Counted from the stretch's first letter, positions 9,422-17,912 are shown. The stretch: DNA of 64,000 nucleotides from Candidatus Moraniibacteriota bacterium (GCA_016699975.1 CP064994.1:129222-193221), one strand, 5' to 3'. Program-made: numbers and translations. Notes: a model not told the origin generated them from the sequence alone.

Positions 9422-11080
9422 TCAAGAGGCGATACCCCTCCAAAAGGCGCTTCTCTCGATTTCCGGGGATATGGTGGAATTGGTATACACACACGTTTGA
9501 GGGGCGTGGCCATCTTGGCGTGAGGGTTCGAGTCCCTCTATCCCCACCAAATTGCAACTTTTTGCGGAATTGTCGCCCATGCGGGCGATTTTTTCTTTGG
9601 TTTTGCGGAGCAAAACCCAGATGTTTTCAGGGGGGAGAGCTGCGTTTGGGGCAGCCGTTGGCTGCGCCTTTTTGGATTTTAGAAACAGGTTCAATCCGTC
9701 CATTTTCAGAAAAGCCTCTTTTATGGCACTCGGCTCGCCACTTTTTGCAATTTCACAGAGAGAAACGGCTTGTTTGAGCCATTGGCGCATAGGTTCAACC
9801 CAACTCTTGCTGGCAAGCGTTAGCTTGCCGATTTGTTCTTCCAGCGACTTCTTTTCGCTCATTAGTTCACCCTGTCTAGTGCGATAGGTGTTCTGGTCGA
9901 TATCTTGATCTAAATAACTGTCTAAAAGTCGCTGGAGCTTGCCCTGCAAGCTCGCAAGTCGTGTTTGTGCGCTCGCCACAAACAAGCCAGATGTTTGGTT
10001 GGCTTTCTTTTCGTCCTCGTCCAGCATTTTGCCCAGCGTGGTCGCCCACGCTTGCGGCATAGCGTAGCTATGCAAAATGTCCGCCAACTGCGCTACTAAA
10101 TCAGGTTCAGTTACGGCTGGCTCAGTGCAACGGATTGTTTTGTGCTTTCTTGTGCAACGATAATACACATACTCGTGAATATTACCGTTCTTTTGGTGCT
10201 TTATCTTTTTCTCGGCAGTAACGGACAGTTTACACGTTGCACATTTGAGCAAACCGCAAAATATTTGCGGGGCAGTCGCGCCTTTTTGTGGTCGTCCACG
10301 CTTGGCAAGCGTAGCTTGCACCTCATCGAACAGTTTTTTGCTAATAATTGGGGCGTGTTTGCCCTCATGTATCTCGCCAGCATATTTGAAATGCCCATAG
10401 TAAAACGGATTGGTGAGTATGCGCTTAATTTTATCTTTCGGAAACTGTTTGCCAGACTTCGTTAGTATTCCTCTACTTGCTAGAAAAGCGGCGATATCCT
10501 CAAGCCGTTGATCACCTTTGGCGTATAGTTCAAAGGCTTCAGCAACGAGCGGCGACTGCCGGTTGTCTACAACAACGGTTTTCGTTCTTACGTCATTTAT
10601 ATACCCCACAGGCGCAAGCCCAGGGCGTTCACCCCTGCGGACTTTCTGGCGCAAACCTCGTTTTGTATTTTCAGATAGGTTGTCTACATAATATTTTGAC
10701 TGCCCGAATGCTATGGAGAGCATAAACTTGCCTTGTGAGGTATTTTCAAACCAAAAACTAGGAAACTTCAGTGTTCCTAGTTTGCCGCTGTCCAACAAAT
10801 AGACAATCTGCCCACCGTCCACACTATTCCTAGCTAGTCTGTCAGGGTGCCACGCCAAAATATTGCCGCCATCTTTTTCGATTTCAGCCAACAGTTTGCC
10901 AAATACTGGTCTGCCTGTCGTTTTTGCTGACTTTTTCTCTATGAACTCGGCTGCAATATATAAGTTTTCTCTTTTGGCATACTCTCGCAACTCTACCAGT
11001 TGCGCCTCAATGGACAAAACTTGTTTGTCCTCTACGTCAGTAGACTTTCTGGCGTACAGATAATATTTATTGTTTTGCAT
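9422..11080 (-). CDS. Large serine recombinase (resolvase/invertase catalytic domain, recombinase domain and Zn-ribbon)
   Basis: N-terminus YLYARKSTDVEDKQVLSIEAQ has the catalytic Ser and conserved Q. A Cys cluster CGLLKCATCK…YYRCTRK follows, and the C-terminal half is coiled-coil. The last 85 or so residues read through IR-A and antisense across the tRNA, so the true stop is uncertain. Confidence 0.85.
   Translation of the reverse strand: MQNNKYYLYARKSTDVEDKQVLSIEAQLVELREYAKRENLYIAAEFIEKKSAKTTGRPVFGKLLAEIEKDGGNILAWHPDRLARNSVDGGQIVYLLDSGKLGTLKFPSFWFENTSQGKFMLSIAFGQSKYYVDNLSENTKRGLRQKVRRGERPGLAPVGYINDVRTKTVVVDNRQSPLVAEAFELYAKGDQRLEDIAAFLASRGILTKSGKQFPKDKIKRILTNPFYYGHFKYAGEIHEGKHAPIISKKLFDEVQATLAKRGRPQKGATAPQIFCGLLKCATCKLSVTAEKKIKHQKNGNIHEYVYYRCTRKHKTIRCTEPAVTEPDLVAQLADILHSYAMPQAWATTLGKMLDEDEKKANQTSGLFVASAQTRLASLQGKLQRLLDSYLDQDIDQNTYRTRQGELMSEKKSLEEQIGKLTLASKSWVEPMRQWLKQAVSLCEIAKSGEPSAIKEAFLKMDGLNLFLKSKKAQPTAAPNAALPPENIWVLLRKTKEKIARMGDNSAKSCNLVGIEGLEPSRQDGHAPQTCVYTNSTISPEIERSAFWRGIAS
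9465..9549 (+). tRNA. tRNA-Leu(GAG), class II with long variable arm and encoded CCA
   Basis: GGGGATA acceptor stem, anticodon loop TTGAGGG, T-arm GAGGGTTCGAGTCCCTC, 3' end TATCCCC-A-CCA. The last 7 nt (CACCAAA) are repeated at 14087-14093. Confidence 0.85.
9543..9682. repeat. IR-A left copy of about 140 bp. It begins inside the tRNA 3' end and is the reverse complement of 11228..11365 with 2 mismatches.
   Basis: Direct comparison of the two stretches: CACCAAATTGCAACTTTTTGCGGAATTGTCGCCCATGCGGGCG… against the reverse complement of …CGCCCGCATGGGCGATAATTCCGCAAAAAGTTGCAATTTGGTG. Confidence 0.9.
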
Positions 11081-11227
11081 GACACCCCCTCAACTTAAAT
11101 AGCCGCCCCGCTGGACACAAACTAGGCAAACCCAATTTGTACGGGACGGCTATTAAAGCCATCAAAAAAGATTTGCCGAAATTAGTTTGTGTCCACTTAC
11201 TATTTTACCAGAAACCGCCTATGGCGG

Positions 11228-11365
11228 CTAAAATCCAAAAAGGCGCAGCCGACGGCTGCCCCAAACGCAGCTCTCCCCCCTGAAAACATCTGGGTTTTGC
11301 TCCGCAAAACCAAAGAAAAAATCGCCCGCATGGGCGATAATTCCGCAAAAAGTTGCAATTTGGTG
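11228..11365. repeat. IR-A right copy, inverted relative to 9543..9682
   Basis: See IR-A left. ORF 11189..11410 encodes the same peptide as the recombinase tail because of this repeat, and is probably not a real gene. Confidence 0.9.
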
Positions 11366-11541
11366 TCTATATACGACCAAGCTCGAACCTATTTTGAGGA
11401 AAACTGCTAAATTGCAGCCCGCCGTCTAGCGGGTAAGTCTGCCCTCTGCGCCCCACCAGAAAAACCCTTTGCTTTTTTGAGATTTCCCCCCGCCGAACTT
11501 CTTTTTGAAGTTGAAAAGGGTGTTTCTGGTGGTTCGCCTGC
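11359..11541. repeat. IR-B left copy of about 183 bp, the reverse complement of 13912..14094 with 1 mismatch. It abuts and overlaps IR-A by the TGGTG/CACCA junction.
   Basis: GGTTCGAGCTTGGTCGTATATAGACACCA… versus …GGTTCGAGCTTGGTTGTATATAGACACCAAA. The internal sequence is otherwise identical across the whole length. Confidence 0.9.
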
Positions 11542-11607
11542 TGCTTTAGTGACTTGGCGACATGCATTACACTACGCTAGATATAGCGTATATTGCAAAT
11601 AAACTGT

Positions 11608-12153
11608 TTATGATTCGACACTATGCACGAGCGACTGTACGACCGCCCAGAAATGCCATCGAAACTCGCTTGTGCGAATATCTAGGTAGTCGACTCTGTC
11701 ATACATACGGCTACCTCGCCTGTACGGAATGACCGCTATAGTATCATTAAGGATATGTTGTTCAATCGTCTTTTGAGCCTTATTGAGTCTTCGCAGTAGT
11801 GTTGAAACTGACAACTCCCGACTTGTCCGCACACCTTCTCTTGTTGCGTCGCGCAATGACAACTTAATAGGGTTTGGTTTTACGCCGTTACTTACGTCTG
11901 CAATGTTTCGTGCAAAACTTTCATGCCAATACAAGATATCGCCAAGGTAGTCTTTCGCGCTCCAACCGACAACGAGATAATCCTTGTTATCGGTCTTGAT
12001 AATCGCATTGTAATTAACATTTTTTAGCTTATATAACTTTGTATATTCTTCGTATGCGTATTGCTCTCGCGCAAGTGCGTTTTTTAACTTCAGCTTTTCG
12101 TAAGAGTCGGTGGTAGCGGCTATTAGCGCGTCTTGGTTTTTGAAGATTGGCAT
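11608..12153 (-). CDS. Hypothetical protein (element cargo)
   Basis: 181-aa ORF with no recognisable motifs. Confidence 0.45.
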   Translation of the reverse strand: MPIFKNQDALIAATTDSYEKLKLKNALAREQYAYEEYTKLYKLKNVNYNAIIKTDNKDYLVVGWSAKDYLGDILYWHESFARNIADVSNGVKPNPIKLSLRDATREGVRTSRELSVSTLLRRLNKAQKTIEQHILNDTIAVIPYRRGSRMYDRVDYLDIRTSEFRWHFWAVVQSLVHSVES

Positions 12154-12336
12154 AAAGTTATTTTATCATATTTACGAGGTTGTTTTGTATGCGAAGCATA
12201 CCTTATCGGGGGACGGAGGACGGCGTAAGCCACCCTCTATATTTCTTGTTTCACTTTCAATTATCACGCTTAGCTTTCTTGTTAGTTATCCAGCCTGCAG
12301 GTCACAGGAGCGCGAGCGTCTCCGCTTTGCCAGAGG

Positions 12337-12597
12337 TTATTTATTATCTTTCCAATTCCACCACTTCAATTTTTCAGGGTCATGTTGCTCGTGTTCAGCG
12401 AAATATACTGCGCAGCGAAACACATACAGCACACAGCGGTCAATGTGTCCGCCTGCGTTGTCCATGAGTTTCGCATACATCACTTCCGGGTCTTTGTGTC
12501 GCAAATCTTTGACACTATAAATATTGAGACTGCGTAAATCGTTAGTGAGGCTTTTGCCGACACCGGGTATTGTTTGGAGGTCGTCAGTGGCTTGCAT
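12337..12597 (-). CDS. Small helix-hairpin-helix motif protein (element cargo)
   Basis: HhH-like IPGVGKSLTNDL near the N-terminus. Confidence 0.45.
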   Translation of the reverse strand: MQATDDLQTIPGVGKSLTNDLRSLNIYSVKDLRHKDPEVMYAKLMDNAGGHIDRCVLYVFRCAVYFAEHEQHDPEKLKWWNWKDNK

Positions 12598-12600
12598 AGC

Positions 12601-12951
12601 TTACTGCTCCGACCACGCCGCAAGCTCGTTGCCTGCTGGGTCTTTGAAGTGAAAGCGTTTGCCGCCAGGAAAGTCAAAAATCTCTTTGGTAATCGTGCCG
12701 CCCTCGTTTTCCACCTTACTGCGTGCTGACTCAATATCTGATACATAAATGACGACAAGCGTTGCGTTTGGTGGATTGTCGGCACTGATACCGCTTCCAA
12801 CACCGCTATCCTGCGTGTCTACATAGTCATCGCCCCACTGCTGATACGACCAGCCGAAGGCTCCACTGAAAAATGCTTTTGACTTGTTTAGATCGTCAAT
12901 ACTACTTGCCGGAAGCTCAACGTAGTTGATGTGATTATGTGTCTTACTCAT
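12601..12951 (-). CDS. VOC (glyoxalase/bleomycin-resistance fold) family protein (element cargo)
   Basis: HINYVELPASSIDDLNKSKAFFSGAFGW…GGKRFHFKDPAGNELAAW follows the typical VOC beta-alpha-beta-beta-beta pattern. Confidence 0.6.
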   Translation of the reverse strand: MSKTHNHINYVELPASSIDDLNKSKAFFSGAFGWSYQQWGDDYVDTQDSGVGSGISADNPPNATLVVIYVSDIESARSKVENEGGTITKEIFDFPGGKRFHFKDPAGNELAAWSEQ

Positions 12952-12982
12952 AGCAATATTGTAACAAGGTATAATAGTTTAT

Positions 12983-13852
12983 ATGAATAGTGAACAGCTA
13001 ACCACACTCCGCAACCAAATGACGGAAAAATGGTTTAGCTCATTAAAAGTCGGCGATAAAGTCTATAACTACAGCCTTAAATGGCAGAACAAACAAATAA
13101 TAGATAAAAAACTTCGCGAGGGCATAATCAAGGAAATTCATAATAACGGTCAATTTGACCGTTATGTTGTGGTTGATAACCTCACGACTGGACGACAGAA
13201 CAAATGGGGAGATTATGATCTGGTTAAACCGCAGGAAATCCAAGATATAGGAGAGCAGCTACACCAACAGTTATCAGAGATAGCTAGTTCGTCAATGCAA
13301 AACAATGAGTCAGAAAGGCACAAAACTGTTGATGAATATGCGGCTCAAGCCGCATATGAGCAACTTGTTAAAAATGCCGATGAGCTACTCAGGAATAGCG
13401 ATATACAACTAGGCAAATGTACGGGAATATATGGAGCTTTTAACAAGAACACTGGCGAATGTATCTATATCGGAAAGTCAAAATCTTTGATTAGTACCCG
13501 TTGGCGCGAACACGCTCGGTTCTGGAAAAAGTTACGACCAATTCATAGACAGCCGCTATTGACGCAGTATATGCACTTTTTTAGTGACCAAATCGAGTGG
13601 CGAGTGCTTTTGCCTGTCGAAAGCGACATAAACAATGACCTGATTGAGTTTTGTGAAAGACGACTTTTTGAAAAATACCGACCAATCGCAAACTCCATTG
13701 TTCCGAACGGAACATTTTTCGGCAGAAGCGTGTTAGAGGGCGAGGGAGATTCTGTCTTGGTGTCAGAGTGGAATCCTGATATGGTTACAATCAAAATCCA
13801 TAAAGGCAACTTTAATGGTTTTTCAGATGGTAAGAGTCATTTTGAAGTGTAG
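12983..13852 (+). CDS. Hypothetical protein with a GIY-YIG nuclease motif (element cargo)
   Basis: GIYGAFNKNTGECIYIGKSKSL…R…EH matches the GIY-(10)-YIG-…-R-…-E arrangement. Confidence 0.55.
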   Translation: MNSEQLTTLRNQMTEKWFSSLKVGDKVYNYSLKWQNKQIIDKKLREGIIKEIHNNGQFDRYVVVDNLTTGRQNKWGDYDLVKPQEIQDIGEQLHQQLSEIASSSMQNNESERHKTVDEYAAQAAYEQLVKNADELLRNSDIQLGKCTGIYGAFNKNTGECIYIGKSKSLISTRWREHARFWKKLRPIHRQPLLTQYMHFFSDQIEWRVLLPVESDINNDLIEFCERRLFEKYRPIANSIVPNGTFFGRSVLEGEGDSVLVSEWNPDMVTIKIHKGNFNGFSDGKSHFEV

Positions 13853-13911
13853 CGAGGGCGCGAAGCGCGGCGGCTTTGCCGCCTAAAGCACCGCCGTCTC
13901 TGCCATTTATG

Positions 13912-14094
13912 GCAGGCGAACCACCAGAAACACCCTTTTCAACTTCAAAAAGAAGTTCGGCGGGGGGAAATCTCAAAAAAGCAAAGGGTTTTTCTGGTGG
14001 GGCGCAGAGGGCAGACTTACCCGCTAGACGGCGGGCTGCAATTTAGCAGTTTTCCTCAAAATAGGTTCGAGCTTGGTTGTATATAGACACCAAA
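13912..14094. repeat. IR-B right copy, ending in the CACCAAA direct repeat
   Basis: See IR-B left. Confidence 0.9.
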
Positions 14095-14104
14095 GAAAGG
14101 AAGT

Positions 14105-14131
14105 CCCGGGCGCATCCGCCCGGGTTTTTGG
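14105..14131 (+). terminator. Rho-independent terminator at the element/tRNA-cluster boundary
   Basis: CCCGGGCG-CATC-CGCCCGGG followed by TTTTTGG. Confidence 0.6.
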
Positions 14132-14234: not shown

Positions 14235-14308
14235 GGACAATTAGCTCAGATGGTGAGAGCGCCTCGTTTACACCGAGGAGGTCGCTGGTTCGAGTCCAGC
14301 ATTGTCCA
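14235..14308 (+). tRNA. tRNA-Val(TAC)
   Basis: Acceptor GGACAAT/ATTGTCC, D GCTC/GAGC, anticodon stem CCTCG/CGAGG, loop TTTACAC, T-arm GCTGGTTCGAGTCCAGC; CC encoded. Confidence 0.85.
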
Positions 14309-14321
14309 CCGATTGTCCTTT

Positions 14322-14393
14322 GCCGAGGTAGCTCAGTGGTAGAGCAGAAGACTGAAAATCTTCGTGTCGGGAGTTCGATTCTCCCCCTCGGCA
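14322..14393 (+). tRNA. tRNA-Phe(GAA)
   Basis: GCCGAGGTAGCTCAGTGGTAGAGCAGAAGACTGAAAATCTTCGTGTCGGGAGTTCGATTCTCCCCCTCGGCA. Confidence 0.9.
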
Positions 14394-14556
14394 CCGTGAA
14401 GTGGAAATGAACTGTTGGCTTCAACATGATTTGTATGGCTCTCCCTCTCTCGATTTTCTCTGACTGCTGTGTTTTTATTGTTCTCAAAGAGACTATTCCC
14501 TCACTCAGAAGAGAGATGACCTCTCATCATACGGGCCGAGTTTATTCAGAGAACTT

Positions 14557-17744: not shown

Positions 17745-17831
17745 GGGCGAGTGGCGGAATCGGCAGACGCAGCGGACTTAAAATTCGCAGTCCCGATGAG
17801 GGACATGAGGGTTCGAGTCCCTCCTCGCCCA
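17745..17831 (+). tRNA. tRNA-Leu(TAA), class II
   Basis: Acceptor GGGCGAG/CTCGCCC, anticodon stem GCGGA/TTCGC, loop CTTAAAA, long variable arm, T-arm GAGGGTTCGAGTCCCTC. Confidence 0.85.
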
Positions 17832-17912
17832 CACGAATTTTTGCAGGAGTTTTTCAACAAAGGTGATGCTCAAGAGGAAACTCTTGAGCTACTTTTTTTA
17901 TTGCTGTTCTTG

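Follow-up and report, generated by a model that had tools for sequence, protein, structure and literature searches.

The segment between positions 9550 and 14094 of a 64,000-nt stretch of the Candidatus Moraniibacteriota bacterium genome (GCA_016699975.1, CP064994.1:129222-193221; hereafter, the window) is, as comparison with its relatives shows, an integrated mobile element of a large family that extends across the Patescibacteria (Candidate Phyla Radiation, CPR) and whose sole conserved gene encodes a large serine recombinase (LSR). The ~4.5-kb element runs from the 3' end of a tRNA-Leu(GAG) gene through arm X, the LSR gene, arms X' and Y, and four cargo genes to arm Y' (Table 1). X' and Y' being the reverse complements of X and Y, respectively, the internal junction at which the two repeat pairs meet (site 2) is the reverse complement of Y'-core-X, the junction expected if the element were excised at its outer sites (sites 1 and 3) and circularised, and blastn confirms this relationship. 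As the reverse complement of the predicted circle junction, site 2 constitutes a complete, inverted copy of the element's own attachment site (attP) together with a spare 3' end of the recombinase gene; it holds the last 60 codons and the 3' region, and the crossover core falls within the recombinase reading frame. An initial annotation of the window had recognized the nested repeats and had missed both the nature of this junction and the continuation of the recombinase open reading frame (ORF) antisense through the tRNA gene.

The repeats were delimited with an inverted-repeat search. X and X' match over 138 nt (99% identity, with two mismatches at arm positions 27 and 114), Y and Y' match over 183 nt (99% identity, one mismatch), and the two pairs overlap by exactly the 7-nt core. 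The runner-up inverted repeat across the 7-kb region extends over only 30 nt at 70% identity, which excludes a chance origin for the two pairs. The tRNA gene is left intact by the insertion (ARAGORN, Rfam) and is adjoined by the recombinase gene; the outermost arms of the element, X and Y', do not form an inverted pair with each other, and blastn finds a single copy of the element within the window. These boundaries refine the initial annotation, which had the two mismatches of the first pair right and started it at 9543 rather than 9545; had correctly seen CACCAAA recur at the far boundary, placing it at 14087-14093 rather than 14088-14094 and assigning all of it to the tRNA, which contributes only CACCA; and had noticed the overlap of the pairs as 5 nt, not as the full TTTGGTG/CACCAAA. 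Its second pair (11359-11541 and 13912-14094, around four cargo genes) is exactly as the repeat search and ORFs delimit it, and the copy of the tRNA end that it saw in each pair belongs to three core copies that we read as the recombination sites.

Distribution and integration sites

We assembled a set of loci comprising the three closest relatives and 159 further ones, drawn from one-genome-per-species and metagenome scans, and processed every locus by script with tblastn, self-blastn, and ARAGORN. A total of 7995 recombinase relatives were scored, the named ones being Saccharibacteria, with other CPR also among the named relatives in the scans. Collapsed to non-redundant copies, the set holds 169 recombinases that are 45-97% identical to that of the window and come from Saccharibacteria, Nomurabacteria, Paceibacterota, Daviesbacteria, Woesebacteria, Microgenomates, and other lineages. 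The three closest loci, from unrelated assemblies, have abutting inverted-repeat pairs (one locus at tRNA-Leu(cag), one at tRNA-Leu(tag), and the third in a composite array), and the nested layout recurs in well over 100 independent patescibacterial assemblies. Of the non-redundant copies, 115 have the repeat that brackets the recombinase, with at least 99% identity in 76, and 48 have the abutting cargo repeat, which encloses 0.5-6 kb of variable cargo. Arm lengths over this wider family range from 64 to 160 nt; in the close relatives examined (the window and L001-L004), the inner boundary of the repeat falls at the same codon. The initial annotation had offered, as one explanation, a recent inversion of an integrated element; a one-off event of this kind is excluded by the recurrence of the same architecture in more than 100 independent assemblies with recombinases down to 45% identity. 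Its remark that the layout fits no standard element class still holds, in that we found no description in the open-access literature, subscription literature being outside the search.

The recombinase gene and a tRNA gene on the opposite strand meet end to end, 3' to 3', in 102 copies. Target tRNAs include 17 isotypes, with insertion at the discriminator/CCA end. When the three sites of each locus are compared, rightward of the core (arm X), sites 1 and 2 are identical, as are sites 2 and 3 leftward of it (arm Y'), and the sequence common to all three amounts to 3-7 nt (CACCA, TACCA, (A/C)GCCA, or CTCCA, with a minimum of CAC in L063 and L075). Core sequence varies in step with the discriminator base of the target, and the residue encoded across the core shifts accordingly (V, A, or E). 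This pattern marks conservative site-specific integration through a very short crossover region, which is what a serine integrase should produce, and it bears out the initial proposal of an element driven by a large serine recombinase and integrated at a tRNA 3' end, for which Pfam domains and ARAGORN also speak. Recombinases that are ~78-82% identical to that of the window occupy other tRNAs, for instance Leu-tag, Ile-tat, Arg-cct, and Met-cat (L008/L009, L010, L017, and L019), and the Y' arms of these elements differ only in a few bases beside the core, which suggests that retargeting is easy and governed largely by the core.

The recombinase and its alternative C-termini

The recombinase has matches to the Pfam families Resolvase (PF00239, 1e-21, residues 7-151), Recombinase (PF07508, 9e-19), and Zn_ribbon_recom (PF13408, 2e-7). 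Across 60 homologues, Arg10 and Ser12 of a YARKS motif are invariant, as are Cys274, Cys279, Cys282, Cys308, and Cys317 of the zinc ribbon, and an AlphaFold2 model of the homologue P0049 contains two long helices (342-389 and 395-424; medium confidence) that correspond to a coiled-coil insertion. The catalytic domain, the Recombinase and zinc-ribbon domains, and the short shared core together assign the enzyme, 526 aa in its native form, to the LSR (serine integrase) family. The closest curated models, CcrB, CcrC, and XisF, score far under their cutoffs, the IS607 model reaches 27.7 bits against a cutoff of 110, relatives in phage and plasmid collections are at most 31% identical, and an exact-protein lookup returned no identical protein on record. 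We found no second family-wide conserved gene that could be a candidate directionality factor, either among the ORFs of the window or in the relatives' loci, and the non-coding part of the recombinase module amounts to only 147 nt.

As integrated, the recombinase ORF (11080 down to 9422) crosses arm X and continues antisense through the tRNA gene, such that the native last 14 codons are swapped for 40 antisense-tRNA codons. The native ending can be read at site 2, where X'-core-Y, in the sense of the gene, encodes residues 467-512 followed by SIYDQARTYFEENC and a stop codon (ORF 11189-11410). Both endings occur in databases: among 120 homologues, ~100 end in ...V-R-x-x-G-L-E-P..., the antisense T-arm, and ~17 end in xFYxxARTYFxxxC. 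In the Y arms of the internal site from 57 distinct elements, read in the frame of the gene, the Tyr, Arg, Thr, and Phe of this motif are invariant, nucleotide variation is confined to synonymous positions (CGA/AGA/CGC/CGG; ACC/ACT/ACA/ACG; TAC/TAT; TTT/TTC), and the stop codon is at the same position in 50 of the 57. The native tail is thus under clear protein-level selection. Since the Y arm evolves as coding sequence though it is usually detached from the gene, the state in which X'-core-Y is read, be it a circle or a flipped module, must be a working part of the life cycle. In an AlphaFold2 model of a native-tail homologue, the tail forms a terminal helix (predicted local distance difference test, pLDDT, 70-80) with the core at its start. 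We had also considered that the Y' arm mimics a tRNA T-arm (GGTTCGAGC, lying 4 nt further from the core); this idea was downgraded, because the variation tracks the codon positions of ARTYF and protein coding explains most of the variation in GGTTCGAGC.

Table 1. Features of the element and its target in the window
Feature	Position	Strand	Description	Basis
LSR gene as integrated	9422..11080	-	552 aa; residues 1-512 authentic, last 40 are antisense tRNA translation	
tRNA-Leu(GAG)	9465..9549	+	Integration target, left arm of attB; 3' CACCA in core	ARAGORN; Rfam tRNA 52 bits
Core copy 1, CACCAAA	9545..9551	+	In site 1, attL (tRNA-core-X)	Sequence; three-site comparison over loci
Arm X	9545..9682	+	- strand encodes recombinase codons ~467-512	Repeat search, ORFs
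Promoter and leader of recombinase	11081..11227	-	Predicted	Alignment of relatives, covariation counts
Shine-Dalgarno, GAGGGGG	11085-11091	-		
H-type pseudoknot	11098-11195	-	Conserved; directly 5' of Shine-Dalgarno	
Extended -10, TGGTAAAAT	11202-11210	-		
Leader hairpin and T run	11215-11227	-		
Site 2, X'-core-Y	11228..11541	+	Complete inverted attP and spare recombinase 3' end	blastn of segment: matches at 14094-13912 and 9682-9545
Arm X'	11228..11365	+	Inverted copy of X	Repeat search
Core copy 2, TTTGGTG	11359..11365	+	Common to both repeat pairs	Sequence
Arm Y	11359..11541	+	Core, native tail, conserved structured element	Repeat search, alignments
Spare native tail	11366..11410	+	SIYDQARTYFEENC plus stop, in frame with X'	ORF 11189-11410; codon-periodic conservation, 57 sequences
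Cargo gene	11608..12153	-	181 aa; without family match	
Cargo gene	12337..12597	-	86 aa; Cdd1 family PF11731, 3e-29	
Cargo gene	12601..12951	-	116 aa; glyoxalase/bleomycin-resistance fold PF00903, 6e-8	
Cargo gene	12983..13852	+	289 aa; weak GIY-YIG nuclease match, 3e-4, under Pfam cutoff	
Y-arm structure extension	13887..13914	-	Site-3 side only; closing strand 13887-13900, small hairpin 13901-13914; marks cargo orientation	
Arm Y'	13912..14094	+	Inverted copy of Y	Repeat search, sequence
Core copy 3, CACCAAA	14088..14094	+	With Y' makes site 3, attR (Y'-core-B')	Sequence
Terminator hairpin B'	14105..14124	+	Moved 4.5 kb from the tRNA by the insertion	

Module orientation

The recombinase module could be oriented in 104 copies, 102 of which are in the standard state and two flipped. 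In the flipped locus L084, tRNA-Ser(cga) is followed by X, the promoter, and then a native-tail gene that runs into X'-core-Y; the assembly used k = 141, which exceeds the 135-nt repeat, and the orientation is therefore resolved by single k-mers. The other, L100, lies at tRNA-Leu(taa). Eight further native-tail contigs are tandem arrays or undecidable, and L083 (4705 nt, with both ends within repeats) fits a circle and also a flipped or tandem copy. Cargo modules also occur in both orientations, with the whole operon inverted end for end between L036 and L037 (748 nt at 94% identity) and in L013 relative to L014/L018 (630 nt at 88%). We had taken cargo orientation to be random and corrected this once an asymmetric marker beside one Y arm revealed a majority orientation (~12 loci) with minority flips (3). 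These comparisons suggest that both modules can invert, the cargo more often, and that neither acts as a freely flipping switch.

Composite loci

The layout is elaborated in several relatives. In tandem arrays (L021/L090 and L086), the recombinase gene of one element runs at its end into the Y arm of the neighbouring element, and such joints imply that an attP × attR-type event occurred. In the closest relative, L001 (6220-11536 and 11536-19999), whose recombinase is 97% identical to that of the window, there is an additional cargo module, and a cassette flanked by direct copies of Y' occupies the internal site. The end of the L001 recombinase gene abuts a different element of 8 kb that adjoins tRNA-Leu(gag) and encodes a decayed recombinase of ~30% identity, and the L001 copy lies 8.4 kb from the tRNA; this locus is an accretion of unrelated serine-recombinase elements at one tRNA. 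In L072 (5447-10270), the recombinase gene adjoining tRNA-Lys is split (residues 5-127 and 122-473) by a complete second element that has its own cargo and recombinase modules and is inserted at a site other than a tRNA. Within a Paceibacterota subfamily (L074, 1-3412; likewise L078 and L082), cargo encoding P-loop kinase-like (248 aa) and GrpB-like (175 aa) proteins lies inside X/X', between the spare end of the gene and the recombinase; the two-module plan thus has exceptions.

Structured elements of the leader and the arms

The leader of the recombinase gene contains a conserved pseudoknot with stems TGGACACAAACTA/TAGTTTGTGTCCA, GGCAAA/TTTGCC, and AATAGCCGTCCCG/CGGGGCGGCTATT. Over 45 sequences, 94.5% of cells are paired, and double changes affect 18 pairs (227 cells, where shuffles give 66 and slid controls no more than 45). 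In 40 of the 45 sequences one pair is U-G, a wobble that points to sense-strand RNA. No Rfam family matches the pseudoknot, which is a candidate new cis-regulatory RNA.

The plus strand of arm X carries three terminator-like hairpins with T runs (9572-9589, 9599-9617, and 9651-9665), which face into the recombinase module, and X' mirrors them on the minus strand (11245-11338), facing the module from the cargo side; they sit in sequence whose other strand codes for the C-terminal region of the recombinase. Such inward-facing hairpins would insulate the recombinase module from both the tRNA and the cargo. The idea that read-through from the tRNA drives a flipped recombinase gene was dropped on account of the three hairpins in X. 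Differences between X and X' are scarce beside the core and become more frequent toward the inner end, a gradient compatible with gene conversion that begins at the core or with tighter constraint near it. In some elements, among them L003, L040, and L088, the arms diverge by 7-8%.

Beyond the spare stop codon, the Y arm (11411-11541, mirrored at 13912-14042) contains a variable hairpin and then a long stem (11448-11470/11515-11537) that encloses an invariant loop motif, TTTGAGATTTCCCCCGCCGA. Compensatory changes are found in 8 of 12 predicted pairs. RNAalifold returned no structure from untrimmed Y arms and recovered one stem from the trimmed alignment. Possible roles include a 3' untranslated region, an accessory site, and a single-strand signal.

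A tentative mechanism and its alternatives

The reading that we favour, while giving it somewhat less than an even chance, is that integration locks the recombinase by a tail swap and that rare repeat recombination rejoins the gene to its spare native end. A 4.55-kb circle would make full-length recombinase and integrate by attP × attB (attB being the chromosomal attachment site). Integration via the attP copy in which the gene ends would exchange the tail helix for junk, leaving the enzyme crippled or silenced and the element locked, and this locked state would accumulate, as 102 of the 104 decidable copies may reflect. Rare recombination between X and X' would then flip the recombinase module and rejoin the gene to the spare end in site 2; it would probably be of the RecA type, because 138 identical bp far exceed what a serine recombinase site needs. 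The flip would restore an active enzyme, which could excise the element or move it with no need for a separate directionality factor. The Y/Y' repeat would follow automatically, because a spare end must include the half of attP beyond the core, as would occasional cargo inversion, and the arms would double as transcriptional insulators. A lock of this kind could account both for the 102:2 excess and for a gene content that lacks a directionality factor.

A bolder statement of the same idea is that a one-gene element sets its own directionality by DNA rearrangement, not by a directionality factor; integration would remove an essential C-terminal helix, and a spare end, kept identical by recombination, would permit rare reactivating flips. 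More radically, the spare copy might be a splint that rebuilds attP from transforming single strands. We regard this generalization as possible but doubtful.

Several considerations weigh against the locking model. Inversion, circle, and excision of the window element are predictions from its assembled sequence; the inactivity of the tail-swapped enzyme is an assumption of the model; and the AlphaFold2 prediction that makes the tail a terminal helix is poor overall (mean pLDDT 65, shallow alignment). Selection on the tail has a simple explanation also in its use in the circular form. The flipped loci L084 and L100 could stem from integration through the internal attP copy, not from inversion, and should both attP copies of the circle be equivalent, a short-lived flipped state would have to be assumed in addition to explain the 102:2 bias. 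Most genes in the standard state are intact ORFs, which fits periodic reactivation and equally fits continued function. Finally, the tandem arrays suggest that the site rules of the enzyme may be looser than the canonical ones from which we have reasoned.

The internal attP could instead be a second functional attachment or docking site, permitting integration in either orientation and the capture or exchange of cassettes of cargo and additional elements, and perhaps also an operator that the recombinase binds to regulate its own promoter 150 bp away, with inversions being accidental and repeat identity kept by gene conversion. The extra cassette of L001 sits exactly at the internal site, tandem arrays form at Y-type arms, and cargo varies between close relatives; mismatches become more frequent away from the core, a trend that a functional site in the core-proximal part would produce, and site 2 is just upstream of the promoter and its elaborate leader. 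However, ~50 bp would suffice for docking, not 314 bp that include 46 gene codons and 135 nt of 3' region, the inner repeat boundary stays at one codon in the close relatives (with arm lengths varying over the wider family), and a second attP reactive with other chromosomal tRNA genes should be costly. On balance, we think that docking is unlikely to be what maintains the repeats.

The initial annotation had proposed one or two invertible segments, with the recombinase acting as an invertase. On such a scheme, recombination at inverted cores (sites 1 × 2 and 2 × 3) would switch the modules between two expression states. The three cores do stand in alternating orientation at the outer ends of the repeats, the recombinase sits inside the segment that it would flip, as in Hin-type systems, and both orientations of both modules occur in relatives, which vindicates the proposal to that extent. 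Free switching is nevertheless hard to reconcile with the bias in orientation (102:2 for the recombinase module and ~12:3 for the cargo). A cargo flip changes nothing obvious, given that the Y arms are identical and the cargo genes of the window are transcribed outward from the centre; the repeats, at 138 and 183 nt, are far longer than the ~20-25-bp half-sites of serine recombinases; and the enzyme is an LSR, unlike the small, enhancer-using invertases. Programmed inversion is, in our judgment, quite unlikely.

We consider it very unlikely that the repeats serve to fold the element back on itself while it is in transit as single-stranded DNA. X would pair with X' and Y with Y', and X'-core-Y would splint the ends, rebuilding a double-stranded attP or allowing circularisation of one strand; structured elements in both orientations would make either strand competent. 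The internal segment is indeed the exact complement of the joined ends, the same logic underlies the internal complementary region (ICR) of DIRS retroelements, both arms are rich in conserved hairpins, and the elements carry no transfer, replication, or packaging genes. Natural transformation has been reported for cultured Saccharibacteria. Yet serine recombinases are not known to act on folded single strands, single-stranded DNA could not support expression of the recombinase, and the U-G wobble of the leader indicates a structure of RNA, not DNA. An assembly artefact, i.e., a chimeric or fold-back contig across the repeat, as the initial annotation also allowed, can be dismissed, because, although the contigs of many relatives break inside the repeats and assemblers evidently struggle there, the same layout is found in more than 100 assemblies that differ in project, assembler, phylum, and target tRNA, with repeat sequences that differ between elements.

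Comparison with known systems

The enzyme and its integration chemistry are those of known serine integrases. As in phiC31, Bxb1, the A118/LI integrase, SCCmec CcrAB, and Tn4451 TnpX, a Resolvase/Recombinase/zinc-ribbon protein acts on a very short identity core, with a single gene being sufficient, and the weak NCBIfam similarity of the window enzyme to CcrB, CcrC, and XisF is in keeping with this likeness. In LSR systems generally, element and target share a very short core around a 2-bp crossover, integration is unidirectional, and excision depends on a separate directionality factor. Enzymes of the Ccr and TnpX types are bidirectional, and no directionality factor is known for them. Unlike the phiC31 and Bxb1 phages, SCCmec, and Tn4451, the family of the window targets the 3' end of tRNA genes, the usual target of tyrosine, not serine, integrases, and, unlike in any of the LSR elements named, the crossover lies within the recombinase ORF. 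To our knowledge, none of phiC31, Bxb1, A118/LI, SCCmec, and Tn4451 has a second, inverted, complete attP with a spare gene end. The family is thus set apart by its tRNA 3' target, by the core in the integrase ORF, and above all by the obligatory inverted internal copy of the joined ends. Insertion sequences and transposons with terminal inverted repeats (including the serine-transposase IS607 and Tn4451), which use many insertion sites and usually duplicate the target, differ in other respects as well, since the outer ends of the window element are not inverted repeats and its insertion is site specific at tRNA ends. With tRNA-targeting islands it shares, as do 102 relatives, an intact tRNA, an adjoining integrase gene, and a direct repeat at the far boundary.

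The nearest formal analogues are the 2-micron circle, for the geometry of the repeats, and the DIRS ICR, for the complement of joined termini, both with unrelated enzymes. In the 2-micron plasmid, as in the circle predicted here, two long inverted repeats containing the recombinase site divide two invertible unique segments. There, FRT lies within 599-bp inverted repeats, FLP is a tyrosine recombinase, the plasmid replicates autonomously, and inversion serves copy-number amplification, whereas domain and family searches found no replication gene here, and the element exists in integrated form. DIRS elements are retroelements of eukaryotes that encode a reverse transcriptase and a tyrosine recombinase, and their ICR, an internal segment complementary to the termini placed side by side, serves reverse transcription; the window element has no reverse transcriptase. 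The Hin, Gin, Cin, and Pin switches resemble the family in having a recombinase gene between inverted sites, with both orientations found in nature. These are small serine recombinases with a C-terminal helix-turn-helix, acting at 26-bp sites with an enhancer; the family of the window differs in its LSR, in its 138- and 183-nt arms, in the 102:2 bias, and in its mobile, tRNA-integrated context. Finally, in the BPs/Brujita immunity systems and the SSV1 integrase, an attachment core likewise lies in coding sequence, so that free and integrated forms encode different C-termini; these involve tyrosine integrases and no inverted spare gene end, and the SSV1 gene is wholly split.

Patescibacteria represent a large share of bacterial diversity, and gene exchange among their tiny genomes is poorly known. 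With thousands of homologues, 17 tRNA targets, and variable cargo that includes restriction-modification, the family appears to be among the commonest integrative elements of CPR, and it is a minimal one, with one gene and ~450 bp of sites in a conserved, unusual geometry. If the idea of self-locking and a spare end is true, it would be a new route to directionality in serine integrases and a widespread, previously unrecognized strategy of gene mobility in Patescibacteria, and it could furnish a compact, tRNA-targeting, resettable integration tool. The ~78-82% identical enzymes at different tRNAs, with a core that tracks the discriminator base, offer a natural series for studying how serine integrases are retargeted, and the Y-arm structure joins the leader pseudoknot as a candidate new cis-regulatory RNA. 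The repeats also explain many of the contig breaks beside tRNA genes in CPR metagenome-assembled genomes.

Cargo and surrounding tRNA genes

Cargo content differs between close relatives, and domain searches of the window and the relatives' loci revealed no transfer, replication, or packaging genes in elements of the family. A defence role for the cargo of the window was rejected, there being no PADLOC match. The cargo of L086 (3184-8418) includes a DNA methyltransferase and a helicase/restriction-like gene, and some members of the family, at least, therefore move restriction-modification systems.

No uninterrupted tRNA-Leu(gag)-terminator junction was recovered from close relatives in the scans, which were aimed at finding relatives. 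In an Rfam scan of the window, only tRNAs reach the gathering score, and three weak sub-threshold matches overlap neighbouring tRNA genes. Among the 13 tRNA genes of the window, 10 do not encode the 3' CCA (e.g., those at 14235-14310, 14322-14395, and 17745-17832); those that do, all reading ...CACCA, are the occupied tRNA-Leu(gag), tRNA-Val(gac), and tRNA-Leu(tag).

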